DNA of 64,000 nucleotides from a virus (lineage: Duplodnaviria > Caudoviricetes). This document shows positions 1-53,455 of this stretch, piece by piece (the first letter of the stretch is position 1; each line of letters opens with the position of its first letter). The translations under genes were made by a program, and so were the position numbers. The stretch lies in IMG/VR virus record IMGVR_UViG_3300003155_000119, positions 49,779-113,778 of that record; one strand, written 5' to 3'. The notes beneath the pieces were generated by a model that saw only the letters and a list, made by a program, of their open reading frames with translations, searched no databases and was not told the origin of the DNA.

Positions 1-2
1 TT

Positions 3-2303
3 AAATGCGCCGCGGTTAGCAATGGTTTTAGTTTAGGAACGGCATCAATAACATTAACGAATAGTTTAGAAAGCGAATCTGGTTACTCTTTGACTATTGT
101 CAATGGAACGCAAGTCTTTAAATATGATGAAAATGGGGTAAGCCCAACTAGCTAGTCTAATGATGTGCCAATGGTATTAGAACCTTTGCGGCTTTAGTTA
201 ACATCTGCGGACGGGGCGGCGATAGCAGATAGCGTTTTAGAAAACTTGCCTATATCGTGGGAAATTCCGACAGAGGACACTTTGTTGATTGTAGAGGAAA
301 ATAGCCTATCAAGAATAGAACTTTCATATGACATTGCCGCATCTTATAGCTATCAAAAAACAAATAATACAATTACCGCTTCTGTTACCTACTAGGGTTA
401 GCGGTTAAGCGCAAGTACGAATTTCTTATTCTTGAAAGATGGAGACCCAGGAACAAATGGTACTAATTTCGTATGTAAGATAATACCAAATGTAGCAAGC
501 AATGTAACGCCCCCTGACCGCGTAATATATGATGTAACGCATGGAAGATTAAATTACACCCCGTCTGGCGCGAATACTTAGTGGGTAAGAGCTTAGCTTT
601 GGGAAAATGGAGAGTTAATTTTTGATGGGGTAAGTAGCTAGAATAATTTTGATGTAACTTGGAGTTTATTAGCTAATAAATATAATTATAATACTTCAGA
701 TATTTCAACTCTTTAGATAAATTCCATTACTGGATAGATTAATTGTAGTGGATATAATGAATTAAATCACGTGGCTGACATTATTAAAGTAGTAATTTCT
801 TATTAGGGAGTAGAATATGTAGGTGTCTTGCCTATTGTACTTGTAAGTATTAAAAATTTGAGTTATAATATTAGTATACCAGAAAAATCAGGATTTCAAT
901 TCGTTACTTATAGCTCAGATGGGACTAACCCCTCTTATGACAAGTCTAATCCATTTGAAGTACGAATTTTAAATAATGGTACTGATGTGAGCGAAAATAA
1001 TAATACTACTTACACATGGAATATAAAAGGCGCAATATACGAAGACAATAGCTGGAAAGAACAGTCTTTATTAACTGTCTCAAATAATGATAGTGATGCT
1101 TTAAATAAGAATTAGTAGAATTTAAAACCCTCTAGCTCTTATAATGGACTATGTGTAACTAATGCAGTAGAATGCGTTGTCCGAATAAGCGGGGCAGAAA
1201 CTGCGAGAGTTCATATCCCAGTATATCTAGGATTAAATCGTTACGGACTGGCCGCTTTAAATGGTTGGGACGGAAACAGTATACAGACTAGTGCGGAAGG
1301 CGGCTTTATTTTAGCTCCTTAGATGGGGGCTGGCCGTAAAGAAACAGATAATAGTTTCACTGGTTTAGTGATGGGCGAGGTCAAAGAAGGCGGTAGCTCA
1401 ACTAGTGAAGTTGGTTTATTTGGTTACAATAAAGGATAGAGGTCCATATTCCTTGATGCCGAAACGGGCACTGCCGCATTTGGAGTAGAAGGGAAAGGAC
1501 AAGTAATAATTGACCCAACAGAGGATAGAGCGCTATTAAGGAGTGGGAACTATAGACAAGGTTACTCTGGTATGGCTATTGATTTAACTACTCCTCAAAT
1601 TACGTATGGGAACGGAAATTTTACAGTGGACAATGAAGGTCATCTGTATGCGTCCGAAGGAGAGCTGGGAGCTGGAAGTTCAAAAATTCACCTTGGAGGA
1701 CAAGGGAGTAGAAGTTATGTCTATAGTGGCAATAAAAATACATTAACATCTACTTCTACTGGTTTCTATTTGGGAACGGATGGTTTTGCTATGGGCGCAG
1801 GAAGTTCTGGCTAGAGCGCGTTTTAGATTGATACAACTGGCGCGGTTAAAGCAACTAATATATCAGTTTAGAATGCAGCCACGAGTAATGGTAGAATTGA
1901 AATAACAGCAGGCAGCTCTTGGTCTTAGATAAACTTTTATTATGGAGGCTCAAGAAGAGGCTATATCTATGGAGGTTCTAATGGCCTAGAGATATGGGGA
2001 TCTCCAACTTATATTGGAGGCTCTAGGATGGATATTTCTGCCAGTTCTTTAGATATTAGTTCTTCTTCTATGTCAATTACGTCTAGTGTATTATATCTTA
2101 GACCAGGCACTTTATATGCGAGAACAAATTCTGGGTCAGGATATGCCCCAGCTATTAGTGCTACTTACTAGGTTTTATCATTAAAAACCCATGCTAACCC
2201 TGGAGTACCAGGCTTTCCAACTTTAACCAAAGTTTATTATAATATGACTTTTTATAATGGAATATTGGTAAATACTTCTTCTGGAGAAGAAACAGATGAA
2301 TAA
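3..2303 (+). CDS. Large tail/baseplate structural protein, 5' truncated by window edge (TAG=Gln)
   Basis: Frame 3 reads from base 3 to TAA at 2301-2303, and the stops I saw in between are TAG; joins track ORFs 828-1115 and 1572-1814; tail-type motifs LNGWDGNS, TGLVMGEV, STGFYLGTDG. Confidence 0.8.
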
Positions 2304-2332
2304 TATTTTTATGGAGGTCAAAAGGAGATAAT

Positions 2333-2656
2333 ATGACAGAAAAAGAAATTTATGATTTACAGAGAGACATATATTGGTATCTTTCAAATAGATTTTAGCA
2401 AAAAAATATTCCTCCTATTATTTAGAAATTAATAATAGAAGGTATATACTGTAAAATTTAGATGCTTGCAGAAAGTTATGATTGGAACCTTTTCATAGAA
2501 AAAAGAGTAAAAGAGAAAGAATTAAAAAATAAACAAGAAACTGAAATAATAGTTCCTGATTATATGAAAGATGAAGAGTAGTAGCCTATACCAGATTATA
2601 TAAGGGATTCAAAAGGAGTAGCTGAAGAAACTTCAGAGGGGGTTACTTATAAATGA
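2333..2656 (+). CDS. Hypothetical protein (5 in-frame TAG)
   Basis: AAGGAG RBS, ATG 2333, TGA 2654-2656 overlapping next ATG. Confidence 0.7.
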
Positions 2657-3159
2657 GTAGAATTAAAAGTTTAAAAATAAAGATAACTGATACTGATTTT
2701 GGTGAGCCAATTCCTCTTGGCGCAGATGCTACGAATGTAGATATGTCAACAGGCGAAAGTGTTGAGGAAGCAATGTTGAATAGAGTTGAGCAGGAATTCG
2801 ATAACACCGCACAAGGGGACGCATCTTTAATAAATGCTGATACTGTACAAGGAGAAGGACTAGCTCATTTATATTCGGATTTCATAGTCATAAATGTTCC
2901 AGCCTCATCTGAATAGCCAAATTAGGAAGATATGTATTTTGCGGATGTTACTGTAAGCGGGATGACGCCTCAAAAAGCTATACTCGGAATACAAATGAGT
3001 TACGATACTAGTATAGACACTCAAAAAGCTAAGGCCGCCTACTCATGGGATTATTTAGAGACTGGAACAGATAAAATATCTTTTTATGGGACCAGCTCAT
3101 GGGTTGATTCTTTTACTATTGTTGGAGTTGTGGTTTAGGCAGAGGAAGGTGAATATTAA
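2653..3159 (+). CDS. Hypothetical tail-associated protein (TAG=Gln)
   Basis: Joins track ORFs 2653-2916 and 2932-3138 in one frame; ends TAA overlapping next ATG (TAATG). Confidence 0.75.
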
Positions 3160-3713
3160 TGCCAGAAGCGCAATATTTAAAACCTTAGATTCCGTTGAAG
3201 AAGGGAGAAGATTACTTTTATCCCTTAACAACAGATGACTAGGTAATTTTATCAGATGGTCGAAGACTTAACTAGGTAGATTTTAATAACGAGCAAATAA
3301 TTTTCGTTGGGTCAAATGAAAGTTTCCCAACAAGAGGAGATTCTGGTAAAATATATGTAAAGAATAATTATTTATATATATGGAATGGTGTAAATTATTA
3401 GATACTAAGTGTTTAGACAGTAAACGGGAAGTCTGGTTAGGTAGAATTGACTGCGGCGGACGTGGGAGCTTTAAACCATCCTTCTGATATTTCTGGTGCT
3501 GCTGTAGGGTCATATTTAGTCATATAGAGTATTACGAATGGAAGAATTAATGTAGGGTTTGCGTCAATGTCGGATATTACTGGAGGCTTTATAGAAGCAG
3601 CGAATGGTAGCGAACCAGATGTTTCGTCTAGGCGCGCAAATACTCTGTATGGTGTTCAAATGAGAGTAATTAGCGGAGACAATGAATAGTCTGTTATTAG
3701 TTATAATAACTAA
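3159..3713 (+). CDS. Short tail fibre-like protein (8 in-frame TAG)
   Basis: Reads SV(Q)TVNGKSG(Q)VELTAADVGAL, a typical phage fibre repeat motif, only with TAG=Gln; not in ORF track. Confidence 0.8.
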
Positions 3714-3724
3714 GGAGGTTATTC

Positions 3725-5710
3725 ATGGGAAATAGATATTTATGGTCGCAATATGACCTTGAATCAGTATATCGGTATGATTATAATGCAGTTTCTAATA
3801 AAATAGTCCGTATAGCAGTAAGTTCTAGTAGTAATCCTTCATACAGTAATTATTAGATACTAGCGATGGCAGATAGACCTGATCCAGTAGGACGGAATCG
3901 GTGGACGTATACCGGAAAATATAAAATAGGACGCACTTATATGTATACAGATGATTACCCCTACTGCATAGTTTTATATACAAAGGCCAGTTCTAGTTTA
4001 ATAAATTCGTTGTTAGGTAAAACGTCTATTAGCACAGGCACATTTAGTGGTACTTTAAATATTGATTTTAATATTATTGGCGGAAGCACTAATTCTTCTC
4101 TCATTTGGGGAGGCGACTATATATATTGGTCTATTATGACCGCAGCAAAGACATGGGAAATAGATAAACAAGCATATACTGGTTCTTCTTCTGGATACGA
4201 AGGAGAAGTTATATTAGTATGTAGTAGTTCAGCAAATTCATCAGCAGAATCTTATAGACAAGGATTTGAATATCTTTATACTACATTAGAATATAATAAA
4301 GGAGATAAACTTGGATATAGAACTAGTAGTTCGTCATCTGCATATCCAAGTAATGATTATAGAGGCGGATATTGGTATGAATATGCTTATTACAGTGGTA
4401 ATAGATATGACAATATAGACCCAACAGCTATTTCTATTCCAGATACTATAAATGCCAATGATTATATAACCGTAACAATTACACCTAATACCGCAGGTAA
4501 CGCAAATAGCGGGATGGGAACTAATACTTATTATACTTATGAATATAAATTTGGTTCTAGTGGTTCATGGACTTAGTTCCAGCGAGCGACGACATCAACA
4601 ACCGCAACTTTATAGATTCCAGCAGGAACAAAAAGTGTTCAAGTTAGAGCTAGAGCGTCAGATACTTTAGGATTCACTTCAACAACATATGTTACTTCAT
4701 AGACCGTAGAAGTTATTAATAACTACCCACCCTCCGCGCCAGACTCAATTACCGTTACTGGAGTTCAAGTTGACCAAGAGGCGACTATAACCATAACGGA
4801 AGCAACTGATACCGATGGATATATTACTAACTACTATTGGGAGAGAAGCATAGATGGCGGGTCTTTTACTTAGATTCAAGAAACTACAAATTTAGTATTA
4901 TCAATAAAAGATTAGATTAGTGCGGACTGGGGTACGGTAACTTATAGAGTTAGAGCTAAAGATGATTATGGCGAGTATGGCGATTATGCGACTTCAACTA
5001 CTTACGAAGTTCAAGAAGGTGTTTTAATGATTTCAACACCTTCGTACAACTTAGGAGAACAAATTAGTCCATTTTATTTCATCTTTTAGATAAATGTCAC
5101 TGGAACTCCTTCTGATACAAGCGTTCATGTGGATGTATATTTAGATGGGAGACCAAAAGAATCGAAAGATACAAACTTTGCAACTGATATATCAATACCA
5201 ATAGACCCAAGATTACTAAGCGCAACAACGCATACCATAACAATTACAGCTGAGAAGGAGGGGTATACTACGGCGCAATCATCAAATGTTTTTTATATAT
5301 CTGGAATAACTGCTCCAAATGGTGGAGTAGTTGAACAATTATAGAACCCTGCGGGCCAGACTGTTTTGCCGATGACACTAGGTCAATGTGTGATTGGACG
5401 AGACGGCAAAGACATGAATACTATTATAGAAGAAGTTGAGGCGGCCCAAGCAAAAGTTTACTCTGGAAGTTATGTTGGGACTGGAACCTATGGTTCAGGA
5501 AGTCCCAATACCATTTCTGTACAGGGGACGCCTAAAATGGCGTTTATTGCTGAGTCAGGAAGCAGTTCTGGTTTAATGTGGGGAGGAAGTCCAACCGTCG
5601 GAAATGTTACTTTTAATGCGGTAGATGGAAATTTGACTTGGTATGCTTCATCTGCTTCAGCGCAGTATAATACGACAGGAACTAATTATTATTATATGAT
5701 ATTAGTATAA
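3725..5710 (+). CDS. Tail-associated protein with fibronectin type III-like repeats (TAG=Gln)
   Basis: GGAGG RBS; joins track ORFs 3866, 5129, 5366 in one frame; FN3-like segments NYPPSAPDSITV, VTYRVRAKDDYG. Confidence 0.75.
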
Positions 5711-5723
5711 GGAGGAAATATAT

Positions 5724-6017
5724 ATGAAGATAATTAAAAATACTCCATTTAAGAACGGAGCTTATCCATCTATTTAGAACTGGGACGGGATTTCCGCTCC
5801 AGAAGGCTATTATATATGGCTAGATGGGCTAGACACAGAAAATTTTTACCAGTATAATGGTTTTGTAACATTAAATGTTTTAAGAGGAGCTGTAATTAGC
5901 TATACTCCTAATGAAGAGGCTTGGGAGGCATGGAAAGCCACATTGCCGCCAGAACCAGAACCTGAAACAACAGATACTGAAATATTAAATATGCTTTTAG
6001 GAATGGAGGAGGAATAA
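5724..6017 (+). CDS. Small hypothetical protein, tail-fibre assembly-like (1 TAG)
   Basis: AAGGAGG RBS, ATG 5724, TAA 6015-6017; ends PPEPEPETTDTEILNMLLG. Confidence 0.7.
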
Positions 6018-6020
6018 TTT

Positions 6021-6650
6021 ATGGCTATAACAAGAAAACAAGCAGCTGAGCAACTAAGAAAAGCTATTCAACTATTTATAAATTCATTAGATGAAGAAAC
6101 CGCACTAGAGGTTGCTACAGTCTATCCTGCGTGGAAAGTCAACACTTATTATGCGAAAGGCTAGATTATCAGTTATGGGACTAATTCTGTTGGGGACCCT
6201 CAACTATATAAAGTAATTACTGGACATACTTCTCAGGCGGATTGGACTCCAGACACCTAGGCCGCATTATTTGATGCTTTTGGTTTGGACGAAAGCGGCT
6301 ACTCTATTTGGGCGCAACCCGCTGGAGCTCATGACGCATATAATATTGGAGATGAAGTGAATTATAAAGGTTCTATATATCGCTCTTTAATTAATGGAAA
6401 CGTATGGGCGCCAGATGTTTATACGGCAGGATGGGAACTTGTAAAAGAGAGTCCAGAAGAGCCAGAGGGACCTGACGAGCCTATTACCGAGGAATATCCA
6501 GATTGGGTGAGACCTACTGGCGCGCATGATGCTTATAATATTGGAGATATAGTTAAGTATAATGGAAAACTTTATCAATCTACTATTGATGGAAACGTAT
6601 GGGCGCCAGATGAATATCCAGCTGGATGGACTTTATACGAGGAAACATGA
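6021..6650 (+). CDS. Carbohydrate-binding (CBM5/12, chitin-binding-like) repeat protein (2 TAG)
   Basis: Repeats W.QPxGAHDAYNIGD.V.Y.G..Y.S.I.GNVWAPD.Y.AGW; N-terminal extension through TAGs gives YPAW..HTSQADWTPD. Confidence 0.8.
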
Positions 6651-6775
6651 AAATAGTAAATCCTTTATTATATTAGGAAGTTTATAATACAGCTGTAAGC
6701 GTTCGATAGTAGGTGCCGCAAGAGATAGTAGACGAAGAAGAGGAGGAAGATGTGTTAAATGAAAATAATAAATAA
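6647..6775 (+). CDS. Small acidic peptide (3 TAG)
   Basis: ATGA overlap with upstream stop; 42 codons to TAA; fills the gap between neighbours. Confidence 0.45.
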
Positions 6776-8126
6776 TTTGCGTTTTAAGACATATATTCCT
6801 CCTGTAATAAAAGCAACTAATTTATACGTTACAGAAGAAAATATAAATCTAGGTAATGATAATTATATTCTTACTTATTACTTAGAACCAGAAGATGTTG
6901 ACACGAAATCTATTGATTGGTACTATTTGCCGAAGGATGGAAATTTAATTATTACCGCGTTAGATAATAATAGAATATCCATATATAGAGCGCCAACGAT
7001 TTAGCCAAATACAACTTATACACTAGTACTTCAAACAATAGACGGAAGTAATTTAGAAGATTCTGTTTCTATCTTTATAGAAGATACTACTGTCTATGTA
7101 AATAATATTACTTTTAGTCCAAGGTCTTTAGAAATTCCTGTGGGCGGTCAAGGGCAATTTGCTTTTACGGTACTGCCGTCTGACGCGACGAATCGCAATA
7201 TAGAATTAAAAGTAACGAGCGCCGCAGGTGGGAATACTAGCGGAATAACAGTGTCAAAAGAATCAAGTATTGTGACCGTTTAGACGACAGACTCTGCGGA
7301 ATTGGGCCAGTATACAATTACTGGAACCGCGTAGGACGGAAGCGGTGTTACTGGTTCTTGCTCTTTTACTATTGTTAAGGCAAGTAGTTCTGAGGAAGAG
7401 ATAGAGGAGCATAGAAGCACATGGCGCGGAACAGATTTATTATCTAGCGGACATTTTTCTGACATAGATGAAATTGCTGATGCTGTTGCGACAGGAGATT
7501 TTTCTGATATATGGGTTGGTGATTATTTCACTATTAATGGGCCTATATTTAATAATAGCAGTATCTTAGGTTATGATGAGTATAATTTAGTTGTAATGGA
7601 CATTAATACTATTTCTAGTTTGAGTTAGCCTCATCTTGTTTTAATGCCAGACCACATTATTGGAGTAACTAATTCATTATAGCCAAATAGATATAACTTA
7701 TATGAAGCAGCTGTTTCCAATATGCTGCAAGTTTATTCTCAGTCGTTGAAAGTCTATCTAGGAGAGAATAATTTAATTGATTTTACAGACAGGATGCCTA
7801 CAGAAACTTAGTATTCAGCTACCTTCCCTGGAATTACGCTACCAAGTGTAAAGAGTTTAACTAATTCTTATTCTAACGTGAATCCTCTTTCTATGAGTTC
7901 AGTATTTGTATCAGTCCTTCCAGGAATTTCATTAAGTAGTTCAGGAGCTGGACGACCTACTCTTTCAGCTTTAGCTTCCTATTAGGCTATTGCCATGTAT
8001 GCGGTTAGTGATTTAAATAATACGAATGAGTACTTAATTACGGTTATGAATAATGGATAGCTAATGTCTAATGCAATGTTTCAAAATATGTCTTTAGGTA
8101 TTTGTCCATTATTAATTTTTGGTTGA
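6759..8126 (+). CDS. Ig-like (Big_2-type) domain tail/decoration protein (TAG=Gln)
   Basis: Ig-like motifs TVLPSDATNR, TGTA(Q)DGSGVTGSC; C-terminal HRSTWRG..GDFSDIWVGDYF..PHLVLMPD segment typical of Firmicutes phage tail proteins. Confidence 0.75.
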
Positions 8127-8146
8127 TAGGAGGGATAATAAAGAAA

Positions 8147-8515
8147 ATGAGAATATATAATCCAATATACCCTTCCATTAAAGACAATTTAGAAGAATTA
8201 TTTGGGAAGGCTCCTACCTCAATTACTTTAACATCTTATTCCGCTTAGTATTCTATTGCGGATCAAGGTACTTGTAAAATAAAAGGGTACGTTTATCCAC
8301 AAGACGCATTAAATTAGCAGGTGCTAATAACTTATACGTCTTAGAAAGAAGGTTCTGTCTTAACATATTCTATTAACTATGGAGAAGATTCTACAGGAAA
8401 ATATTTTGAGATTTCTGTTTCGACAACAATAGAAGATGTTTATAGTATAAGGGTTAAAGCAAAAGGGAATTCGTCTGTACAAGCAGATATTTTTACTTTG
8501 ACCGCAGTTAGCTAA
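8147..8515 (+). CDS. Single Ig-like domain protein (3 TAG)
   Basis: GGAGG RBS; VYPQDALN(Q)QV Ig-like motif; ends TAA 8513-8515. Confidence 0.65.
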
Positions 8516-8717
8516 ATATCTAGTTCAGGATATTATCCAGTCCGACTATGAGGAAGGACCAGTCTGTCCTATAATTATATTTGGCTGATAGAAAAATAAA
8601 AAGGAAATATGTTAAAATTACTAGAGGATGGTCTAAAATAGATTATCCTCTTTTATCTTTTTTCAATATATTTATAATAATTTTTAAGAGTAGAGGAGGA
8701 GGAGGAGGTCTAGCAAG

Positions 8718-9278
8718 ATGATAGACTTATTAGAAAAATATTCTATTACAGACATTATAATATTTTTAGTTTTTCTTGCTCTTGCCGCAAAAGAACTAAT
8801 TACCTTCATAGAATGGTCAAAAAGTAAAATAAGAGAAGCAGGGTTAGAAGCCACAATGGATAAGAGAGAAGAAGAGAAATTAGATGGTTATGACGAAGCT
8901 ATAAGAAAGAATAATTCAAGAATAGTAAATTTAGAGAAGGAGTTAGAATCATTATCAGAAGAAGTAACTAAATTAGAAAAAGATTTTAATGAGCACTTAG
9001 ATGAGACTAAAGAAATAAAAGATAGTTTAAGTAGATTGAATACTAATATTTCTTTGCTCTTGGAATCTAATAGAGATATTATTAAAACTACTTTAACAGA
9101 AAAACATCATTATTATTGTTATAGTAAAAAGTGGATTGATGACTACAGTCTTGAATGTTGCGAAAAATTATTTCAACATTATAAATAGGAAGGCGGGAAC
9201 TCTTTTATTGAGCACTTCATGGAAGATTTAAGAAGTTTACCTACTTCTGAAGAAAAAAGGAGAGAAAAGGATGGCTAA
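8718..9278 (+). CDS. Membrane-anchored coiled-coil protein (holin-like/lysis-associated family; 1 TAG)
   Basis: N-terminal hydrophobic helix, coiled coil; read-through of TAG 9186-9188 restores HYK(Q)EGGNSFIEHFMEDLRSLP, the Y..xGGN...M...LP tail common in phage proteins of this type. Confidence 0.7.
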
Positions 9279-11892
9279 TTTAAATATTACTTTATACCCA
9301 CCACAAATACCCACATATCAGAATGCTTTTGTTCTAACGTCTAAATGCCGCATTTATTTTTCTTTATCTATATACAATAGCTATAAAGATATATAGAATA
9401 ATGCGCAAGTAACAGTATCGAATTAGAATACGAATCAATCAGTTCTTTCTTTAACTAAGTATCCTAATGAAATAAAGTTATGTGATGTGAAAATAGATAA
9501 TACTAAGAGTTCTGATAGATATTATATAGAAATTGAGCCAGAAGACTTATAGAATGGCTTTTAGATAAATCAATATTATAAAGTTTAGATAAGATTCACT
9601 AGTGCGGATGCGCCGACTCCACCAGATTCTGCGGCTATAAATAAATGGTTAGTTGATAACGTTGACTATTTTTCTGAATGGTCTACTGTATGTTTAGTTA
9701 GAGCTATCAGTTAGCCAATTTTAACTCTATAGAATCTTTCTTCTAGCTCAGGAGAGGAAGGCTCTAATGTCGCTATTACAACGAATACCTTGGATATAGT
9801 AGGTAGTTTAACTTTTCAAGATTCACACGAGAGTGATTCACTAAGTAGTTATTAGATAAAACTATATGACGAAGATAATAATTTACTGACTGATAGTAGA
9901 ATTATTTATACTAGTGCATACAACAATCCAAATGAAATAAATTATACTTTAAAATATATTTTAGAAAACGGGTCTGCTTATACAGTAACTATTGATATTG
10001 CAACTAATAACTATTATTATTAGACTTTTACTTATAATATTATTGTTATTTAGACACATGAAAATCCATTAAATGCGTTAGTTGTTGCGGAAAATGAAAA
10101 AGAATCTGGCCGCATTAAATTGACAATAGCTAGTACCACTACAGATACTTTCCAAGGTAGCGTCATTATAAGACGGACTTCTAATAGAAGTAATTTCACT
10201 ATATGGGAAGATATTTATACGAGAGTTTATCCTACCAAAGAATTAATTAACTTTACTTGGTATGATTGCACTGTTGAGAGCGGAATCTGGTATAATTATT
10301 CAGTGCAGAAAAAAGACGTATCTGGACAAAGAGGGGAAGAGACGTACATCGAGAAACCGGTTTCAGCGTATTTCGAAGATATGTTCTTAAATGCGGAAAA
10401 ACAATAGCTAAGAATAAGATACAACCCCGCGGTCTCAACTATGCGGCAAAACGTATCTGAAGCCAGAGCCGAAACACTTGGTTCTTAGTATCCTATTATT
10501 AGACGAAATGGATATATTAACTACCGTTCTTTAAATATTTCTGGACTAATTACTGCACTTGATGACTTTAAGGATATTTTTACAAGTAAAGAAGAATTGT
10601 ATGGCAAGGAAGCAACATCTTTATATGATGATTATAATGAGGAAGAAAGAATTACTGAATATAATGATTATATACTAGAGAGAGAATTTAGAGAAAAAGT
10701 AATTACTTTCTTATATAAAGACAATATAAAATTGCTTAGAACACTTACAGAAGGCAACGTCTTAGTAAAATTAATGAATATTTCCTTAACTCCGCAAACT
10801 ACTTTAGGAAGAATGATTTATTCCTTCTCAGCTGAGGTGTATGAAGTAGCAGAATGCTCTTTAGATAATTTTATCAACTATGGAATTATTGAAACAGAGG
10901 AAGATAATATAATATTTGAACAAGAGGAAGAAGAAACAGTTACGCGGAAAGAGGTACTTGGTTAGATTCAGGATACTATCTCCGCAGATACTAATATCGT
11001 TGAATTGATTAAAGAGAAACACGAAACAGATGCGGTTTCAGTTGAGTTGATACAAGATATTAAGTTCTCCTTTTATGATGACCCGTATTAGATAAAAGAG
11101 GACCCGTCAGGTAATTTATTGCCCCTGGCCGCAACAGATGATTAGTCTTTGTCTATTGGTTTAGGCTATATCATTTATATAAATGGAGAGTCAATAATGG
11201 TAAGCGAGGACGGCGTATATTCTCTTATGGATTTAAATGAAATGTTGACGTCAGTTACTTTTCCTATTGATTCGTTTGTGTCTATTGACTACATTGCGGT
11301 CTTAGCTGAAGAAAAAAGTGTTGAACCAGAGAGTTAGATAACGAGTTCTATCTATTATTATAATGATATTGTTGGTCAAATCTGGGGAGGCTTTAACTAC
11401 GGAGAATCTTTATATGAGTATATTGAAGCTAAGTACGCATTCAATTATGATAACTATAACTAGAGATTAATCTATATAGGAGATATTTCAATAGAAGCAA
11501 ATACTAATATGGTATTTTATATATAGACAGATGAAGAATCTACCCCTTTGCGCAATGTTATAAATGAAACAAATGTTTTAACTATTCAAGATAAAACTCT
11601 AAAAATAAGAGATATTTTATTTGGAGGTATTCATCTTGACAAAGAAACAGATAAAAATAAAGAACTTGTTAATTCAAATAAATATTATCAAGAAGATAAA
11701 GAATATAGTTCCTTGGCCGCAATAGGATACCCCCAAGCCAACCATGTATATGTAGTTGATAATGAGAGATATATATGGTATAATGAAAATTGGGAAAATA
11801 TAAATGAGAATGATGATGTAGAAATTCCTACTAGCGGTCTTATTGATTATTATTGTAGAATTGTAAGGGAGGTTTATTTATTGAATGAATGA
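9271..11892 (+). CDS. Large baseplate/tail protein, about 870 aa (TAG=Gln)
   Basis: Joins track ORFs 10120, 10597, 11149, 11548, all in one frame; RAETLGS(Q)YPIIRRNG and LGRMIYSFS motifs. Confidence 0.8.
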
Positions 11893-13933
11893 TAGACCTT
11901 ATTTAAGAGATAAAAATTTTCTAAAGACAATAGACAGAATCTCTTTAAAAGAAGAATTTGCTAAAATAACTATACTAAATTGGCAAGAGCGCCCAATAGA
12001 AGACATACAAGGAAAAGTTAGTTCTGGTACTTTAAATATTAATGGTAATTCCTCCTTGCGCCGCACTTGCAATCTAACTATCTTAATTGACGAAAATAAT
12101 TCAAATATTACTAGTGTAAAAAATTCTTTGTCTATAAATAAAAAAATAAAATTAGACATTGGGATAAAAAACAATACTAGCCAGTATTCAGAGTATGACA
12201 TTATATGGTTTTCTCTTGGGACATATATAATATCTAGTGTTTCAATTACAAATACAAATAGCTAGATAACCTCAGCATCTTTGCAACTGAAAGATAAAAT
12301 GTGTTTATTAAATGGGGAATGTGGCGGGCTCCTTCCGGCGAGCGTTACATTTAGTTCTTATGATACTTTAGACGCCAATGGCGCATATCAAACAGAGCAG
12401 CCTACGATTTATACAATTATTAAATATGTTGTTAATTATTTTGGCGGAGAGTAGCTACCTAAAATTTTAATTAGTGATGTAGACGAGAGAGTTAGAAAAG
12501 TTATGAAATGGACTGGTTCTAATCCTTTATATATTACTCAATACACTAGCACAACATCTGGTGTATAGTATGGAGCTACTACAGATAAAGAGCAGGTAGA
12601 CGAAGCACTTGCCGCGGGAACGATTGATTCTTATACAGAATATAAAAGCGGCCAAGATGTAGGATACATTTATACAGATTTTATTTATCCAGGAGAATTA
12701 ATTGGAGACGCTGGAAATTCTGTCTGTGATATATTAGATAAGATAAAAAGCGCTTTGGGCAATTATGAATATTTTTATGATTTAGATGGGAATTTTATTT
12801 TTCAAGAGATAAAGAATTATTTAAATACATCTAAATCAACTACTGATTTGAATGACATGGAATAGAACAATTATTTAATAGATATTACAAAAGGAAAGTC
12901 TGTTTATACCTTTGATGATAGTTTCCTAATTTCCTCTTATTCAAATGCCCCTTAGTATAGTATGATTAAAAATGATTATATAGTGTGGGGGATGAGAGAA
13001 GATGCTACAACAGGAGCTACATACCCTATACGGTATCATTTAGCTATTGATACAAAACCCTAGACAGGTAATACTTACAAAGTGTTCTTTTATGATGACC
13101 CAGATGACGGAATACGAAAAGCAAAGCGGCCAATACAATTTTCTACTAGAAACGGATTTCCTGCTTAGGGCGCGGAAGATACATTTTATCTTGCTCTTGA
13201 TACTAATATTGTATATAAATGGGATACTGAATAGAACACTTATGTGAGGTTCGCTACACAGACAAAAGATATAACAACTACTGATTGGCGGACAGAGCTT
13301 TATTTATCTGGAGCGCAGGCAGAAGGTTTTAGTTTAGATACAAACAATTATTATACTGAGTTAAATAATGAATGGCCTAAAATGTATGATATAGAGAACG
13401 GGGAATTTTATGAGGGATACGAGAAAGACCCCGCTTCTTTAGATTATTTTTTAGATTTTATAGATTCGTCTGCGGCAATAGGTGAACTTAGTATATCGAA
13501 CATTGGGAAGCGTTCTAAAATAGTTGTAGACGAGGACATCAACTGCATATTTGAAAGAGAAATTCCTAATTTGGTAATGATAGATGCTAGTTAGGATTCT
13601 GCTATTGTAACGGAATAGAGAGAGGAAGCATAGCGCAAAGGGCAAGATTATATACAAGTCACTGGGGCTATTTACAACTTATTAGCTACTGGTGGGACTT
13701 AGAATTCTGCTTTTGAGCGGGTTAAGGAACTAATATATTAGTATACTAGTTATAACGAAAGTATTACTTTACAATGCTTACCTATATATTACTTAGATGT
13801 TAATTAGAGAATTACTGTTAATGATTCAAAAAGTAATATCTATGGAGACTATATGATTAATTCGATTTCAATTCCTCTTAATATATCTAGTATGATGACA
13901 ATATCTGCAACGAGAGCGTTAGAAAGATTTTAA
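11885..13933 (+). CDS. Baseplate hub / tail protein, about 680 aa (TAG=Gln)
   Basis: Joins track ORFs 11885 and 13244; INGNSSLRRTCNLT, QLKDKMCLLNGECGG, LGNYEYFYDLDGNFIFQEI; ends TAA 13931-13933. Confidence 0.8.
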
Positions 13934-13946
13934 GGAGGCAAATAAA

Positions 13947-14492
13947 GTGATTGGACAATTAAGAAGAAATAAAATAAATGATTATATATCTGATATAGAT
14001 ACTTCTTTTTCAGATAATATTATTACAGGAAATTTTATTGCCGCAAAGCATTACTATATAAGCATTGATATAAACACAACAACTCAATAGGAGTAGAATA
14101 TTTCAATAGTTTTAAAGAATTCTGAGAACGAACAACAAGAGCAAACAATAAAAAGAATGAAAATAATAAATGGAAATAATGAATCTATTGAAACGGTTTT
14201 CGTTCCTAATGCGGCATATGATTAGATAATTATAAAAGACTGCACTAATTACACCGTCGTTCTTAACTAGGCCGCAGAAATAAATAATGTCCTCACTAAA
14301 CTTAATATTAATAAACTAACTAAGATTGGCGTTCAAGGTCCGTCTGGTTTAGTAATGGATATTAATGGCGAAGAAATTAGGGTTGGAAGATTTGGAATAT
14401 ATGAGTTAATAAGAAGGATAGATATAGACTTTATCAGTTTTATTGTTAATAATGATGATAATAGATTTTTTATTCTTGATTATTAGTATTAA
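13947..14492 (+). CDS. Hypothetical protein with C-terminal ING..I.(I/V)G..G.YE domain (TAG=Gln)
   Basis: AAGGAGG RBS, GTG start; KIGVQGPSGLVMDINGEEIRVGRFGIYEL; paralogous to 16265 and 59577 genes. Confidence 0.75.
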
Positions 14493-14511
14493 ATAAAGGA
14501 GGGAAAATACT

Positions 14512-16260
14512 ATGGCTGATTATGGTTTTTATGGTGGTCGAAGAGGTCAACCATTTATTCTAAGAACGAATTTTCCTTCTATTCAGGATATGATAGATGC
14601 TTTTTCTTAGGGGAAAGAATATACAGAAGTAAAATTTGATGAATATGTTATTATAGACACTGCGGACAAGGGTAATGACGACAATGGAAAAATCTATCGG
14701 CGCGGGTATGATTACACTAATGACATGGGCGGTGCTGAATATATATGCTAGATAAAAGGAAGCGGAGGCGCCAGTCCGCATTTATTACTTACTACTATTG
14801 ATAATATTAATTAGCTGAAATAGTAGCAAGATGTTTCATTCACCGGTGAAGGCGAGTACTCTTATACGGAGAATAATTTAGTTCCAGGTAAAGATGGTGA
14901 TTCATATAATGATTCCATTACTTGGGCCTATTGTTCAGTGAAGAATCCTGATGGAACTGATACTATCTCATACATAGGATTCACTTTCCCTTATACAGTA
15001 ATTGACTATGAAGCAGAAAGTGTTCCATATGATTATGAAGGTACTTTAGTTGAAAGACAAGACACAGCTGATCACCCTTTTTATGAGAAGTGGAAGTTAA
15101 AAATTCCTAGGGGCGCAAAAGGTGATACTATAGAAAATATTCGCGTCATAACTCCCACCGCGGAAAACGTACAAGATTATACTGGTAAAGATGATGACGT
15201 AGCTAATCAAAGACAAATTATAGTTTATGATTAGACCGCCTATGAAGAAAACACCCAGGGCGAAATTCAAACTTTATACCTAGGTGATTATAATATGATT
15301 CAAAGTCTTTCTATGGACGAGGACGGTCATATTACGATTCATTACACTCATGGAGAGGACTAGCTTATAACAGTAATTGCAAGATGGATTACTGCTGTTC
15401 ATTTATCAGAGACTGGTTAGCTGTCAATAGATTATACAACAGGAGAATCTACTTAGGTAGAAAATGTTATAAAATGGATAGACACTATTAGTTTATCTGA
15501 TGAAGGTAATTTAATAGTTACTTATAATGATGGAACATCAGACACCATCCAAGAAGGTATTAAGTGGATTACGGATGTTTCACTATCTGATAATGGAACA
15601 TTTAGAATAGAATTTGGAAATAATTTACCTGCATACGAAGCGACAATTAAATTCCCCACATTAGTAACTTTAGATACAGGAGATGAAGAAGGGGAAGGCT
15701 CTTAGAAAGTTAAAGTAACATATAATGATGGAACATCTCAAGAATTAGGCAATCCATTGAACTATATTATGCGGATGGTTCTAAATGAAGAGGATTATCA
15801 TATATTGGTGTTATTTAGCGACCCGGCTAAGAGACAATAGATAGTAGAATCTGGAGAAGCAAAATCTTATGACGGAAGAAACGACTGGTATGATTTAGGT
15901 GCTGTAAAAGAAGACTCTGGTATTCTCATAGGAATGAATTTAACATTAGACCATTTTACTGGCGGCACTTCAAATATAAGAATAATTAATTAGTTAAATC
16001 AGGAATATCCATCAGGACTCCCCTCCTCAGATGTTAATTTACATGGAAAAATCATTACCGTGGGTGACGCAGACGATGATAAAAAGTTCTTTGCTTTTGA
16101 TTACAATACTGATTCTTGGTATTATGTAGGAAACACATCTGCGGCAGGTCAGGTTACTTAGACTCAAGGTATTATAGTTGGGTACGAGGATGATGATGAA
16201 CTGATTTAGCAAGCGGAAGATTTGCCAGTCGGCACTGTTTGGATGATTGAGGAGGATTAA
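14512..16260 (+). CDS. Tail fibre/baseplate-attached protein, about 580 aa (TAG=Gln)
   Basis: AAGGAGG RBS; begins MADYGFYGGRRG; repeated (I/R/K)WI..(V/I).LS..G.L.(I/V).Y..G units; contains track ORF 14938-15234. Confidence 0.75.
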
Positions 16261-16264
16261 GTAA

Positions 16265-16507
16265 ATGAGTAAGAAAATTTAGTTAAAAGGCCCTTTCAAA
16301 GCCGAAACAGAATTGTTAAAAGATTTATATGAAAAAATAAATAAGATTAGTATTTTTTGTAAACCAGAACATCTTATCGTCATTAACGGAATGACATTCG
16401 AGATAGGAAAGACTGGAATGCTAGAAATAGAAGGGACTAATATTGAATCTTTAAAGTTCTAGCAAGACGAAGATGAAAATACTTATATAGACTTTTTAGA
16501 ATTATAA
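16265..16507 (+). CDS. Small protein paralogous to 59577-59861 (2 TAG)
   Basis: MSKKI(Q)LKGPF...VINGMTFEIGKTGMLEI...IESLKF..TYIDF aligns by eye with GQVLGPF...EINGVQIKIGKTGIYEL...IKSLKF..TIIDF. Confidence 0.75.
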
Positions 16508-16512
16508 AAAAT

Positions 16513-16618
16513 ATGCTCTGCGGTCAAAGGAAAAATAAGCCGCAGAGCATTTTATTTTCTGATATAATAAGAAGAACAAGGCACAGACGATACTTTATTC
16601 ATCTGTGCCTTTTATTTT
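16513..16618 (+). terminator. Two tandem intrinsic terminators closing the tail operon
   Basis: ATGCTCTGCGG/CCGCAGAGCAT (16513-16550) and AAGGCACAGA/TCTGTGCCTT (16578-16611), each followed by T-rich tract. Confidence 0.7.
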
Positions 16619-16738
16619 GTGTATCCTGTTAATTTTAATAAAATATATTAAAATTTGGTCAAAGAAAGTAAGGAAATTTTAATTAAAATTTATATATAGT
16701 GTAAAGACATGAAAGAAAGGAAGGTTAAGACAAAATTG

Positions 16739-17194
16739 ATGAATTATTATAATAATTATCCTTATAATTATAGCTTTGGAGTTAATCCATACCTCCAACA
16801 GTAGCCAAGTTATTCATATCAATAGGCGCCGGCCGCACCTAATAGCACTAATATACTAAATGGAAAAATAGTAGATAGTGAAGATATGGTAAAAGCAACT
16901 GAAGTCCCGATTGGCGGTTTTGGAATATTCCCCAAAGCTGACTTAAGTGAAATCTATATAAAGTCTTGGAATAATAATGGTACAACAAATTTAATAACTT
17001 TTAAGCCATATATTCCACCTGCCGCAGAACAAAATAATAATAGCAATAGCTTAGTTGACTTTACTATTGTTAATGAGATACTAGAAAAAGTTTCTGCATT
17101 GGAAGGGAAGATAGATACTATATTAAATATTAAAAGCAATGCTCCAGTCTCAATAGCACAATAGAAAGAAGGTCTTAAAGCAAATGGCTATTAA
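16739..17194 (+). CDS. Hypothetical protein, Tyr/Asn/Gln-rich N-terminus (gene 1 of six-gene operon; 3 TAG)
   Basis: Extends track ORF 16886-17164 both ways through TAG; LNGKIVDSEDMVKATEVPIGG..FPKADLSEIYIKSW. Confidence 0.75.
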
Positions 17195-17441
17195 TAATTT
17201 TGGAATGAATCCTATGCAATTATTTCAGTTCGTCCAAGCGCAGAAAAATCCCCAGCAATTTATGCTGAATGCTTTAAAGCAGGGAGGAAGTAATAATCCT
17301 GTTTTAGCAAATATTGTTAGTCTAGCGGAGCAAGGAAAAACTAATGAAATTGAATAGGTAGTAAGAAATGTCTTTAAAGAGAGAGGTCTTGATTTTGATA
17401 AAGAGTTTACAAGTTTCAAGCAATAGCTTGGAATAAAATAA
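17184..17441 (+). CDS. Hypothetical helical protein with NP(M/Q)Q motifs (gene 2; 2 TAG)
   Basis: MNPMQLFQFVQAQKNPQQFM...NNPVLANIV...RNVFKERGLDFD; ends TAA 17439-17441. Confidence 0.7.
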
Positions 17442-17470
17442 AGTAATAAAATAAACGGAGGTAAAGGTAT

Positions 17471-18331
17471 ATGTTTAATAATGCAAATGGTTATAGTCTA
17501 TCAGACATTGCGGCAGTTACGAATGCTGAATCCAATAGATGTTGCAATAACGGCAATGGATTTGGCTTTGATAATGGCGCCTGGTGGATTATTATCCTGT
17601 TCCTGTTCTGCTTTGCGGGATGGAGCGGCAACGGAATGTTTGGAGGCGGATTCGGTGGAAGTCCGACATACCAAGGCACAACAACTCGTGAAGAAATTGC
17701 TTACGGATTCGATATGAACGGCTTAGAGAACGGAATCCGTGGAATTTAGAACGGGCTATGTGATGGATTCTATAATATGAATACTAGCCTATTGACTGGC
17801 TTTAATGGATTACAAAATTCAATGAACCAAGGTTTCGCTGGATTAAATACTGTAATCAATAATTCCACTTCAAACATCCAGCAGGATTTAAATAGCATTA
17901 ATATTGCTAATATGCAGAATACTAATGCTATTACAGCTCAGTTAAATGCGCTTGGGACTCAACAAGCCGATTGTTGTTGCTAGACTCAAAGACAGCTGGA
18001 ACGCGGTTTCGCGGATTTGGGGTACAATCTTGCAACACAAGAATGCCAGACTCGTCAAGCAATAAACGACAGCACAAGAGACATAGTAGATAATCAGAAT
18101 GCTGGAGTTCGGTCTATCCTTGATTTCTTAACTCAGGATAAGATTGCAACTCTTCAAGCTGAGAATCAGAGTCTGAAGTTTGCGGCATCTCAAGCTAATC
18201 AAAACAACTATTTAGTTAACACTTTGCGGCCCTGCCCAATTCCTGCATATATTCAGCCAAACCCTTTCTGCAATTATGATTATTTAAGTCTATACAGAAA
18301 TGGTTGCTGCAATAATACCGGTTGCTGCTAA
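17471..18331 (+). CDS. Gly-rich membrane-anchored N/Q coiled-coil protein with Cys clusters (gene 3; 2 TAG)
   Basis: Joins track ORFs 17471, 17777, 18017 in one frame: GIRGI(Q)NGLCDGFY and ADCCC(Q)TQRQL; WWIIILFLFCFAGW helix; C-terminal PCPIPAY..GCCNNTGCC. Confidence 0.85.
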
Positions 18332-18363
18332 TTAAATAATAAGAATGGAGGAAAGATAAAAGT

Positions 18364-18786
18364 ATGGAAATTACTGCCAATGCTTTACAAACAGTAGAAG
18401 CAAACCAAAACGTTTTATTTACGGATACCGCAGTATGTGGTAGCTGCTCCATAATTCACAGAGATGGAAGCGGACTAGTCACTTTACGCGCGTTACCAAA
18501 TAATCAATGTAGAGCTAGATTCAGAGTGACCTTTGGCGGCAATATTGAAGTTCCAACAGGCGGAACATTAGGTCCTATATCTTTAGCTATTGCGGTTAAT
18601 GGAGAGCCAGTTGGTGCTACCACTATGATTTCAACCCCGGCCGCACTAGAAGAATTAAATAATGTATTTAGTAGTGTTTTCTTAGATGTCCCTATTGGAT
18701 GTTGCTCTCAAGTGAGTGTTAAAAATACTAGCTCTTAGTCTATTGGTGTATAGAATGCTAATTTGATTGTAGAAAGAGTTGCTTAA
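18364..18786 (+). CDS. Beta-rich protein, possibly BclA C-terminal/C1q-like (gene 4; 2 TAG)
   Basis: All-beta pattern; read-through gives SVKNTSS(Q)SIGV(Q)NANLIVERVA then TAA; fold call is tentative. Confidence 0.7.
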
Positions 18787-18802
18787 GGAGGAGGAATAAA
18801 GT

Positions 18803-19396
18803 ATGGAAAGATTAAAAAACATGAAAGAAACTCTTCTGTCAGCAGCTCAATCATAGATGGGGAATCTTGCGGCTGCCGATACAAAAGAGTTAGGTCAAGT
18901 AATTGATATGATAAAAGATTTAGAGGAAGCAATTTATTATTGTTCAATTACAGAGGCTATGAAGGAAAACAAAGAAAAAGAGAAGTATAGTCAAATGTAT
19001 TATCAGGAGAGATATTTGCCAATTCCAATGATGAATGAAATGTATCAAAGAGATATGGATAGAAATAGCTATGGAAGAATGTATTACCCAGACCGCATAA
19101 TGAACAATAGAGACGAATCTACTAATAGAGGTGGTTCTCGCTATTATACGGAAAGAGATTGGGATACATATCCAATTAATACAAGAGACAGTAGAGAAGG
19201 ACGAAGTCCTTTAAGCCGAAAAAGCTATATGGAAGCCAAAGAACTACATCAAGGTAAAGAGATACAGATGAAAGAACTTGATAAATATATTCAAGAACTA
19301 GGTCATGACATTACTGAGATGATTCAAGATGCTTCGCCAGAAGAGAAACAAATGCTGCAACAGAAGATTAGTGCTTTAGCCACTAAAATAAAATAA
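18803..19396 (+). CDS. Hypothetical protein (gene 5; 1 TAG)
   Basis: AAGGAGGAGG RBS, ATG 18803; ELGQVIDMIKDL, REGRSPLSRKSYMEAKE, EMIQDASPEEKQML. Confidence 0.8.
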
Positions 19397-19405
19397 TAAA
19401 ATGAA

Positions 19406-19729
19406 ATGTTTAATATTAATGGTGAAGAATGGCGCATAGTCTCTGTTTCATCTAATCATCCAAAACTATATAGAAGCAACGGTTCTTTAGCTGTGGCAAC
19501 GTGCGATGACAATAGCAAAACGATTTATTTAAATAATACTTTAAAAGGTAAATTCTTGAAAAAAGTTCTATGCCATGAAATTACTCATGCGGCAATGTTT
19601 TCTTATAATGTAGATTTGACTATTGATTAGGAAGAATTGCTAGCAGATTTAATTGCTACTTATGGAGAGGAAATTATTCAAATTACTAATAAAGTATTCA
19701 GACGTATGAGAGGAAGATTCTTATTTTGA
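19406..19729 (+). CDS. Small HEXXH zinc metallopeptidase-like protein (gene 6; 1 TAG)
   Basis: VLCHEITHAAMF followed, through TAG, by ID(Q)EELLAD providing a candidate third zinc ligand Glu. Confidence 0.75.
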
Positions 19730-19755
19730 CGGAGGAATCTTCCTCTCTTTTATTT
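19708..19755. terminator. Intrinsic terminator at the convergent strand switch
   Basis: GAGAGGAAGATTC/GAATCTTCCTCTC perfect 13-bp stem followed by TTTTATTTT on +. Confidence 0.75.
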
Positions 19756-51194: not shown

Positions 51195-51982
51195 TCTCCT
51201 CTTTGTTCTTCCTCAAAATATCTCCACTTAAATCCACCACAAAAATTTCTTCTTCCCTTACAGACTTTAATAATAGCACTCGAATCACAATTATTCATCC
51301 GACTAGCTAAAGCCGCAGTATCATAAATATCTATTATTTCATTAGTATTTGGGTCTATTTTTACAACTTTCTTACTCTTGGACTGAATTTGCGTTGTATT
51401 TTTATCTCCTTTATACTAATATCCAGTATAATTAGGTATAGCCAGTTCATTATTATCATTTAGCCAACAAAAATATCTATTAGAAGTTGTTTTCTATTCT
51501 CCTCGACAACAAGCTGCTATCTTTCTTTCATCGCATCCTGTCTATTCTGCACAATCAACAATACTTCTGTATATATTAATAATATTAAAATTCTTATCAA
51601 TTTCTGCAACACATTTTGCTTTATTTCTTTTTGTCTCTCTAATTTTTTGATAAGTATTAGCGTCATTTATAGGATGCTCTGTATTAATGGTTTGATTGTA
51701 ACCATTTGGAGATAACGAATTCATTTTTATGATATAACGCTATTCTATTTCACGAATTTCCTGCTCAGAGCACTCTTTTTCTTCCAAAATTTCAAATTTA
51801 AAATTATTTATTCCATATTTTCTTATTGCCGAATATAAAGGATAATTATATTTTGGATTATTTTTATGAGTTGCATTATATATATGCTAATTAAATCTTC
51901 TTTTTGGTTCGTTTATTGTAGAGCCAATATATTTTTTATTATTTATTAAATTAGTAAAACAATAAATATAATTTTTCGCCAT
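51191..51982 (-). CDS. Free-standing GIY-YIG endonuclease with two NUMOD1-like repeats (5 TAG)
   Basis: YIYCFTNLINNKKYIGST, PNGYN, IAACCRGE, IIKVCKGRR..GGFKWRY; TGA overlaps gyrB GTG. Confidence 0.85.
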
Positions 51983-53068: not shown

Positions 53069-53449
53069 TTATTCGGTCTTAGTAGGAGTTATAGTTCCAT
53101 CAATTACATAAGCCTTTACTTTTTCGTTACTCTCTAACTGATTATTCATCCATTCAAGAGCTTCATCTACCCAGGTACTAAATGTCTCAAATGTAATAAA
53201 TTCACCAACCCAAGGGAATTTTTCTACAGCCATATCATATACATCTCGTAATTTTAGTTGACCAGTACCGCTCCCTAGGGCCGCCTCAGCCTCTGTAACC
53301 GCAAGTTTTAACCACTCTTTTAGGTTTTCAATTTGTTTATCAGATGGTGAGCGTACAAACTGTACAACTTTAACAATAAAAACTGCTAGGGCCGCAATAC
53401 TTAAAATAATTGTCAGCCAGTTATTCATAATAAATCCTAAAATATCCAT
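53069..53449 (-). CDS. Holin (LL-H-like)
   Basis: Single N-terminal TM helix, WLKLAVTEAEAALGSGTGQLKL, next to endolysin. Confidence 0.8.
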   Translation of the reverse strand: MDILGFIMNNWLTIILSIAALAVFIVKVVQFVRSPSDKQIENLKEWLKLAVTEAEAALGSGTGQLKLRDVYDMAVEKFPWVGEFITFETFSTWVDEALEWMNNQLESNEKVKAYVIDGTITPTKTE

Positions 53450-53455
53450 ATCTAA

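Follow-up and report, generated by a model that had tools for sequence, protein, structure and literature searches.

We analyzed a 64,000-nucleotide stretch of a tailed-phage genome, hereafter the window, which comprises bases 49779-113778 of the 113,778-bp IMG/VR record IMGVR_UViG_3300003155_000119 (CheckV completeness, 73%), and found that it carries a real, self-contained operon of six genes, g1 to g6, with late, TAG-gated coding. Two of these genes encode the core of a cassette that recurs in thousands of gut and rumen phages: g4, the knob, which according to its predicted structure is a stand-alone jelly roll of the C1q/TNF type resembling the C-terminal domain of BclA, and g3, the rod, whose long helix is built of 11-residue repeats. 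The cassette is horizontally mobile across phage lineages and, by public host annotations, across domains of life. Our best guess, which we advance tentatively as one possible reading, is that this late operon builds a membrane-inserting rod-and-knob complex that would be matured by a peptidase and exposed at lysis.

Predicted structure of the knob protein

The AlphaFold2 model of g4 had a predicted local distance difference test (pLDDT) score of 98 and displayed the ten-strand jelly roll of C1q and TNF proteins. The VIA structure comparison, from which the Z scores are taken, revealed that the C-terminal domains of F-BclA (9h38; Z 17.0, root-mean-square deviation (rmsd) 1.8 A over 122 residues, Foldseek E 1e-7, template modeling score 0.76) and BclA (1wck; Z 16.1, rmsd 1.8 A over 120 residues) were the closest folds, and C1q domains (Z 13.6-15.0) and ExsFA (7r1m; Z 14.8) were also similar. 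An earlier note on this DNA, made from the letters alone, had suggested a BclA/C1q fold for the fourth gene, and the model and these scores bear it out. The two BclA-type domains have the same jelly roll and a size of ~135-140 residues and share 14-21% identity with g4. Unlike BclA, g4 lacks a collagen stalk, an exosporium leader and a BclA_C match and constitutes a polypeptide of its own, and its gene is carried by phages, some of which infect non-spore-formers. No Pfam match was found for g4 at E <= 1, the BclA_C family (PF18573) included, and neither NCBIfam nor a PDB sequence search yielded a significant match.

The g4 family, for which Pfam has no entry, comprises 7,298 clusters when grouped at 90% identity; at 50% identity, 684 clusters had E <= 0.001. 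Its conservation covers strands and loops alike, with no hypervariable tip, and g4 contains a GCC cysteine cluster. In BFVD, stand-alone viral look-alikes of 130-145 residues were common, and some had been automatically named 'BclA protein'. Among relatives of 246-2000 residues, no g4 form longer than 245 residues was found, although this constitutes weak evidence. An atypical GC content of g3 and g4 was considered and rejected; it lies only about 1 standard deviation above the genome mean and is no outlier. A 136-residue open reading frame (ORF) that follows the rod gene in crAss-like phages was also tried as a g4 homologue, and the relationship was not established (hhalign E 0.011, probability 4%).

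Features of the rod protein

In the AlphaFold2 model, g3 forms a single continuous helix at residues 82-252 (~170 residues), which would give a rod ~25 nm long. The hydrophobic periodicity of g3 peaked at 3.64-3.66 residues, with a power of 164 compared with 47±13 in shuffled sequences and 5.5 at a period of 3.5, and 94% of 70 g3 relatives peaked at 3.60-3.70, none of them near 3.5. A regular hydrophobic periodicity of this kind over a long helix is that of a coiled coil, and the g3 helix consists of ~15 hendecads, that is, of 11-residue rather than 7-residue repeats. The protein descriptions in the earlier note were accurate overall and required two corrections in g3, namely that the coiled coil has a period of 11 and not 7 and that the proposed transmembrane segment is a short greasy run.

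That run belongs to a conserved series of elements. A leader (residues 1-18; consensus MFN...GYSL(S/A)DIAA(V/A)TG) is followed by a Gly/Asn-rich linker, a greasy segment flanked by glycines (residues 37-52), a second Gly-rich linker, the helix with a CCC cluster (residues 168-170) that is invariant among relatives, and a Pro/Cys tail (residues 253-286; PCP.PAY..PNP.C...CGCC). The leader is the best-conserved element of the cassette, with a mean pairwise p-distance of 0.20, compared with 0.37 for g4 and ~0.5-0.6 for the rod, and its core, ..(A/S)D(I/L)AAVT(G/N).., is common to the zincin-type and Cys-type cassettes described below. The greasy run (WWII.LFLF) is conserved in sequence, has a median of 12 apolar residues (segment range, 12-16 residues), and is retained in the Firmicutes, Bacteroides, and archaeal-virus versions; the 20 residues ahead of it contain a mean of 2.3 acidic and 0.7 basic residues. 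Reading the six proteins by eye revealed neither a signal peptide nor a lipobox, and this run was the only hydrophobic stretch. Mirror-tree correlations of the g3 segments with g4 ranged from 0.18 to 0.53 and tracked overall divergence.

At 90% identity, the g3 family, which likewise has no Pfam entry, comprises 7,998 or more clusters. A PDB sequence search with g3 returned nothing significant, and an ESM Atlas search with a 97%-identical database homologue returned viral hypothetical clusters only. The ..DIAAVTG motif presumably resembles a double-glycine leader; at a cutoff of E <= 10, nothing in the genome matched the double-glycine leader model TIGR01847, and the exosporium leader model TIGR03720 likewise went unmatched there.

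Accessory proteins and peptidases

The remaining four genes encode small partners of the rod and knob. g1 has a Y/N/Q-rich N-terminus and a beta-rich domain, and g2 is a helical protein of 85 residues that is rich in Met, Gln and Asn and contains NPMQ and NPQQ motifs; g2 had no match to a Pfam or NCBIfam family. g5 consists of two helices separated by a disordered R/Y/M-rich middle and has conserved motifs; its TAG-free part had only viral hypothetical look-alikes in the ESM Atlas, and a PDB sequence search with g5 yielded nothing significant. g2 lay directly upstream of g3 in 75 of 83 loci, and g5 followed g4 directly in 80 of 83.

g6 is a predicted minimal metallopeptidase of 107 residues. 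Its HEITH sequence (residues 57-61), an HEXXH motif of the zincin type, was conserved in 55 homologues, and its Pfam scores were all below the gathering threshold (SprT-like, 21.4 bits compared with 25.6; DUF6782, 21 compared with 27; M78, 16.7 compared with 22). The matching PHROG, phrog_1233, is an entry of unknown function, and the best hit of the PDB sequence search was selecase (4qhj; E 0.53), which was not significant. These results agree with the stalk, beta head and peptidase architecture that the earlier note had predicted.

A variant cassette in small phages has the order A (~127 residues), B (~150), C (~75), rod, knob, E (~140), and F (~110). Position B is homologous to g1 (E 0.0015), C corresponds to g2 as a Met/Gln-rich analogue, and E, with a helix, an R/Y/S/G-rich stretch and a second helix, is an analogue of g5; M/Q-rich ORFs of ~75 residues hold the place of g2 in the variant cassettes and in the Clostridium perfringens phage XP41-N3. 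In protein A, G-D-C, H, and D residues are invariant, and from these we infer a putative Cys-His-Asp peptidase; a Pfam search with 50 variant accessory proteins gave no match, and a PDB search with an A-type profile gave nothing significant. The last gene of the Bacteroides-type cassettes encodes a small HEXXH protein, annotated in one case as a PolyVal metallopeptidase. Across all loci, 82 had a g6-type zincin, 18 had an A-type protein, and none had both. Thus, each version of the cassette holds one small peptidase, either a zincin or the putative Cys-His-Asp type, and never both. That two unrelated peptidase types substitute for each other suggests that proteolysis is an integral step of the system. 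Fusion of a g2-like module to the Bacteroides or archaeal rods was also considered and was rejected, the resemblance being at the motif level only and the hidden Markov model searches being negative.

Searches of Pfam, PHROGs, NCBIfam, and PADLOC with the six proteins returned only PHROGs of unknown function and the sub-threshold zincin matches, and the PADLOC models of anti-phage defence gave nothing better than E 0.1. Hence, the six proteins resemble no capsid, tail or lysis protein in these databases, as had been proposed from the sequence.

Conservation and mobility of the cassette

We used g4 to retrieve 80 loci from IMG/VR; the order g2-g3-g4-g5 was kept in almost all of them, and g6 came next in 64. 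In a further 40 loci, which brought the sample to ~120, g3 lay directly upstream of g4 in 39. The earlier note had named two outcomes that would speak against it, a block that was not co-conserved and confident matches to virion or lysis families; the results revealed a co-conserved block and no such match. Its statement that similar gene strings in Clostridia phages are annotated only as hypothetical proved correct for the C. perfringens phages.

The median identity to the proteins of the window was 66% for g4 (61-82%), 59% for g6, 49% for g3, 48% for g5, and 44% for g2, whereas that of the adjacent RuvC and dUTPase was 29%. Because the knob and the rest of the cassette far exceed these two enzymes in identity, they must have been under unusually strong constraint or have been exchanged recently. 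The position in the genome also varies. The cassette follows the tail fibre genes in the phage studied here and the lysis genes in Butyrivibrio phage Ceridwen, bajarodcaudo virus 5, and the crAss-like cr116_1; it stands beside integrases in Dulem viruses 33 and 39, between head genes in Dulem virus 35, and among early genes in C. perfringens phage XP41-N3 and Bacteroides uniformis phage C3_41T2LP. Of the cassette, Methanomassiliicoccales virus vir215 has just the rod gene, flanked by a reverse transcriptase gene and an integrase. This variation in position indicates that the module works independently of its neighbours. The host of the Butyrivibrio carrier is the non-sporulating Butyrivibrio fibrisolvens.

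A search of 185,579 species genomes yielded 35 matches, all in contigs of metagenome-assembled genomes from gut or rumen; these are not reliable for assigning hosts because they are probably mis-binned phage contigs. The literature search found no paper describing the cassette, and a study of related gut phages with TAG recoding is silent on it. Both core families are very large (7,000 clusters or more for each at 90% identity), and we found neither a described function nor a paper for either. The better conservation of the knob than of neighbouring core enzymes, and the spread of the cassette across phage lineages and, by public host annotations, domains of life, suggest that carrying it brings a strong and general advantage in the gut. 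The existence of cultured carriers (Ceridwen, C3_41T2LP and, with a reduced version, C. perfringens phages) makes direct testing possible.

The reduced cassette of XP41-N3 (L085:3063-4867) encodes a Y/N/Q-rich protein, a 77-residue NPMQ-repeat protein, a rod of 211 residues with QCCC and an LRPCPIPAY tail, and a Cys-rich, beta-type ORF of 125 residues; it may serve as a tractable model. In Dulem virus 33 (L122:3413-3964) and Bacteroides phage C3_41T2LP (L086:2937-3557), genes for homing-type endonucleases lie directly upstream of the rod gene. Such endonucleases may be a vehicle for the mobility of the cassette, an anecdotal observation from two unrelated carriers.

Operon boundaries and genetic code

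When translated with table 11, the plus-strand genes of the window are split by TAG codons; reading TAG as glutamine yields long ORFs with ribosome-binding sites, six of which, tightly packed on the same strand between 16655/16709 and 19729, form the operon (Table 1). All six genes contain in-frame TAG codons, as the earlier note had stated, with three in g1, two each in g2, g3 and g4, and one each in g5 and g6. TAG codon 93 of g3 aligned with glutamine in 19 of 19 database homologues, which had been predicted with the standard code, and at TAG codons 125 and 130 of g4 glutamine was the most frequent residue in the aligned standard-code homologues. The presence of glutamine at these positions supports the reading of TAG as glutamine.

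The plus-strand block from 1 to 19747 contains structural genes (Hoc-like, major-tail-like, tail, and fibre proteins) with many TAG codons, and the minus strand from 19763 contains RuvC, dUTPase, and replication genes that are mostly TAG-free. No tRNA gene of any kind, and hence no suppressor tRNA gene, was found in the 113,778-bp record; because the record is only 73% complete, a suppressor tRNA may be encoded in the missing part.

Table 1. Positions in the window of the operon genes and of the predicted signals that border them
Feature	Position	Strand	Description
Terminator T1	16513..16550	+	12-bp stem, -20.2 kcal/mol, then U-run; closes upstream tail-fibre operon
Terminator T2	16578..16611	+	stem, -17.6 kcal/mol, U-run; second of double terminator
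Candidate promoter	16655..16707	+	TTGGTCAAAG, ~27 nt, TTATATATAGTGTAAAG; presumed promoter function
g1	16709 (or 16739)-17194	+	Y/N/Q-rich N-terminus and beta-rich domain; start uncertain; phrog_21718, E 6e-11
g2	17184..17441	+	Met/Gln/Asn-rich helical protein, 85 residues
g3, rod	17471..18331	+	286 residues; phrog_16490, E 3e-48
g4, knob	18364..18786	+	stand-alone jelly roll (modeled), 140 residues; phrog_20016, E 3e-55
g5	18803..19396	+	helix, R/Y/M-rich disordered middle, helix
g6	19406..19729	+	predicted HEXXH (HEITH) metallopeptidase, 107 residues; phrog_1233, E 3e-14
Terminator T3	19731..19746	+	6-bp GC-rich stem, -7.3 kcal/mol, U-run; weaker, at strand switch

The hairpin energies and the ORFs confirmed the six-gene unit that the earlier note had described between a double terminator and a strand-switch terminator; the RuvC and dUTPase genes on the minus strand converge on T3. 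That the operon has its own upstream motif was correct in part. The 10-mer TTGGTCAAAG occurs four times on the plus strand and never on the minus strand of the 114-kb record, and the bipartite layout of TTGGTCAAAG, ~27 nt, and TTATATATA..TAAAG is present at two of these four sites. One bipartite site, at 16655, is upstream of g1, and the other is upstream of a GIY-YIG homing endonuclease gene near the terminase and portal genes. The bipartite motif may represent a late promoter type. The second site is at genome position 22169 (L126:670-720), and the endonuclease gene that follows it carries four TAG codons.

Proposed function and alternative explanations

A precedent for the pairing of knob and rod is ExsF (ExsFA/BxpB; 7r1m, 8d02, 9h3d), which, like g4, is a stand-alone TNF-like protein of similar size. 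ExsF forms a trimer whose inter-subunit clefts bind the Pro-rich leader of F-Anchor or BclA, long trimeric partners that dock through this terminal peptide, and residues 1-19 of BclA are removed by cleavage (PMC12357932). In the cassette, too, a knob is encoded beside a rod whose terminal peptides are conserved, and a peptidase gene accompanies them, much as the docking of BclA on ExsF goes with proteolytic trimming (PMC12357932). Unlike in the ExsF system, the partner in the cassette is an alpha-helical hendecad rod and not a collagen, and no sequence likeness to the exosporium leader exists. On the basis of this precedent, we propose that g4 would trimerize and dock on a trimeric rod at a conserved peptide of g3, for which the Pro-rich tail and the N-terminal leader are candidates. 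The peptidase would mature a cassette protein, most likely through a cut at the rod leader, and the Met/Gln-rich g2 and the Tyr/Gln/Arg-rich g1 and g5 may act as holders or linkers. The link to the BclA/ExsF fold suggests that docking of a knob on a terminal peptide, combined with trimming, may be older and wider than the Bacillus exosporium.

Since the run in g3 is the sole hydrophobic segment and export signals are absent from its partners, assembly would take place in the cytoplasm or at the membrane's inner surface; TAG-gated coding would place this in the last phase of infection. The complex would reach the outside, and oxidants, only at lysis. The greasy, Gly-flanked segment would be the working end and insert into lipid membranes, namely the membrane of the dying host or membranes met after release. 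The acidic N-tail and the lack of positive-inside flanks fit a Pf3-coat-like N-out or post-translational insertion better than a type II anchor. We do not take the complex to be part of the virion or a mimic of the spore coat.

g3 shares with class I fusion proteins and double-glycine bacteriocins a Gly-rich hydrophobic peptide beside a long helical rod, together with a leader and a peptidase, and this combination suggests activation by cleavage. Unlike those systems, the cassette exhibits no homology to them, the double-glycine model is silent, the period is 11 and not 7, and tailed phages are envelope-free. It is rather doubtful, in our estimate, that a protease-activated rod with a C1q-like knob, driving its Gly-flanked greasy peptide into lipid membranes, constitutes a new class of phage machine, pore- or fusogen-like and spread by horizontal transfer. 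If true, the machine would be common to gut viruses of Firmicutes, Bacteroidota, and methanogenic archaea and would confer a host-independent gain at or after lysis.

Several observations weigh against a membrane-inserting complex. For a membrane-spanning segment, the greasy run of g3 is short (best 19-residue Kyte-Doolittle mean, 1.45), and it lacks positive-inside flanks, and it could instead be an oligomerization core or a virion anchor. The confidence of the g3 model is moderate, with a pLDDT of 63 for the whole model and of 80-86 over the final third of the helix. The binding of g3 to g4, the trimer states, and the cutting of g3 by the peptidase are inferences only. The Cys clusters suit an oxidizing extracellular role as well as a membrane role, and the evidence fits a membrane location and a virion location alike.

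A virion location is the basis of the explanation that fares best among the alternatives, which we nevertheless consider somewhat unlikely. It holds that g3 is the trimeric shaft of an accessory virion fibre, anchored to the capsid, neck or tail by the N-terminal peptide and the greasy segment, and that g4 is the distal knob, whose conserved ligand in the gut could be mucin or a glycan of the cell surface, for example. The operon ends the structural module and is TAG-gated as virion genes are, the Dulem virus 35 cassette lies within the head module, and some relatives have been automatically annotated as 'spike protein' or 'viral fiber'. TNF-like knobs are common as the fibre tips of phages and other viruses (cyanophage A-1(L), 8ke9; PRD1 P5, 1yq5; the Sf6 knob, 3rwn), and the logic of anchor, rod, and knob is that of reovirus sigma1, the adenovirus fibre, and PRD1 P5, the last of which scored Z 9.7 against g4. 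However, the viral spikes are single chains and proven virion parts, whereas the rod and knob of the cassette are encoded by separate genes in a mobile operon, together with a peptidase and low-complexity proteins. The cassette moves among phages that differ in size, gene content, and host, in some of which it occupies early-gene or integrase-side positions, and a common docking site on such different virions is hard to picture. Moreover, g4 is far better conserved than the usual receptor-binding tips and has no hypervariable loops, and a dedicated peptidase and three low-complexity partners are atypical of a fibre.

We regard as unlikely an extracellular matrix or coat, in which rods, knobs and the Tyr/Gln/Arg-rich proteins would cross-link after lysis, through Cys oxidation and low-complexity interactions, and embed or protect virions or debris; the chemistry would be spore-coat-like, with no spores involved. 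The CCC cluster and CC-rich tail of g3, the GCC of g4 and the Tyr/Gln/Asn/Arg-rich partners resemble building blocks of coats and exosporia, the folds nearest to g4 are those of exosporium proteins, and with no export signals the proteins would be exposed to oxidants only after lysis. Every sampled carrier came from anaerobic animal guts, but the searched databases are biased to gut samples. The argument is one of composition, the homology to coat proteins is limited to the fold of g4, and neither the greasy segment nor the conservation of the leader is explained.

An accessory role in lysis, with g3 as a class III-holin-like or i-spanin-like protein that disrupts the envelope and g4 to g6 as regulators, appears quite improbable. 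Several small phages have the cassette directly after the holin and endolysin genes, and the architecture recalls those of T4 holin T and the Rz i-spanin, established examples in which, as in g3, an N-terminal hydrophobic anchor precedes a large Cys-bearing helical domain. A canonical lysis cassette was ruled out, however, because the phage has its own lysis genes 34 kb away on the other strand (53072-54109, -). One of them encodes an endolysin of 217 residues with M15 peptidase and PG_binding_1 domains and two TAG codons, and the other encodes a Holin_LLH-like ORF of 126 residues (E 4e-4, below the Pfam threshold). In contrast to Rz and T, the cassette has no o-spanin partner and no family match, and it is also carried by phages of single-membrane hosts. 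With respect to spanins, neither a lipobox nor a signal peptide was found in the cassette, nor was a PHROG or Pfam spanin match; with respect to holins, g3 has 286 residues and no match to a holin family. The cassette is found across hosts with very different envelopes, namely bacteria with one membrane, bacteria with two, and the archaeon to which one carrier virus is annotated; some phages carry it among early or head genes. The lysis pair itself is distant from the structural genes, on the strand that is mostly free of TAG, and an Amidase_3 search found nothing.

Incorporation of the proteins into the coat or exosporium of host spores, a link that the earlier note had raised, is highly improbable: g4 shares the BclA/ExsFA fold and its partners are Cys- and Tyr-rich, but the carriers include phages of hosts that do not sporulate, among them phages of Butyrivibrio fibrisolvens and Bacteroides uniformis, crAss-like phages, and a virus annotated to an archaeon (Methanomassiliicoccales), no exosporium leader or collagen stalk is present, and late lytic expression is incompatible with the completion of sporulation.

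Other genes of the phage

Just upstream of the operon, a protein of 582 residues (14512-16260, +) exhibited faint matches to Rib, aRib, and RibLong repeats; it was kept with the cassette in only 2 of 83 loci and is probably a fibre or adhesin of this phage's own. A free-standing GIY-YIG homing endonuclease with a NUMOD-like domain (51194-51982, -) contains five TAG codons and lies among early genes that are otherwise TAG-poor. At the end of the window, a very large protein of >1,371 residues (59885-64000, +), which extends beyond it, contains 15 TAG codons and matches collagen-like and tail-fibre PHROGs, with a strong match to phrog_37900 at its C-terminus.

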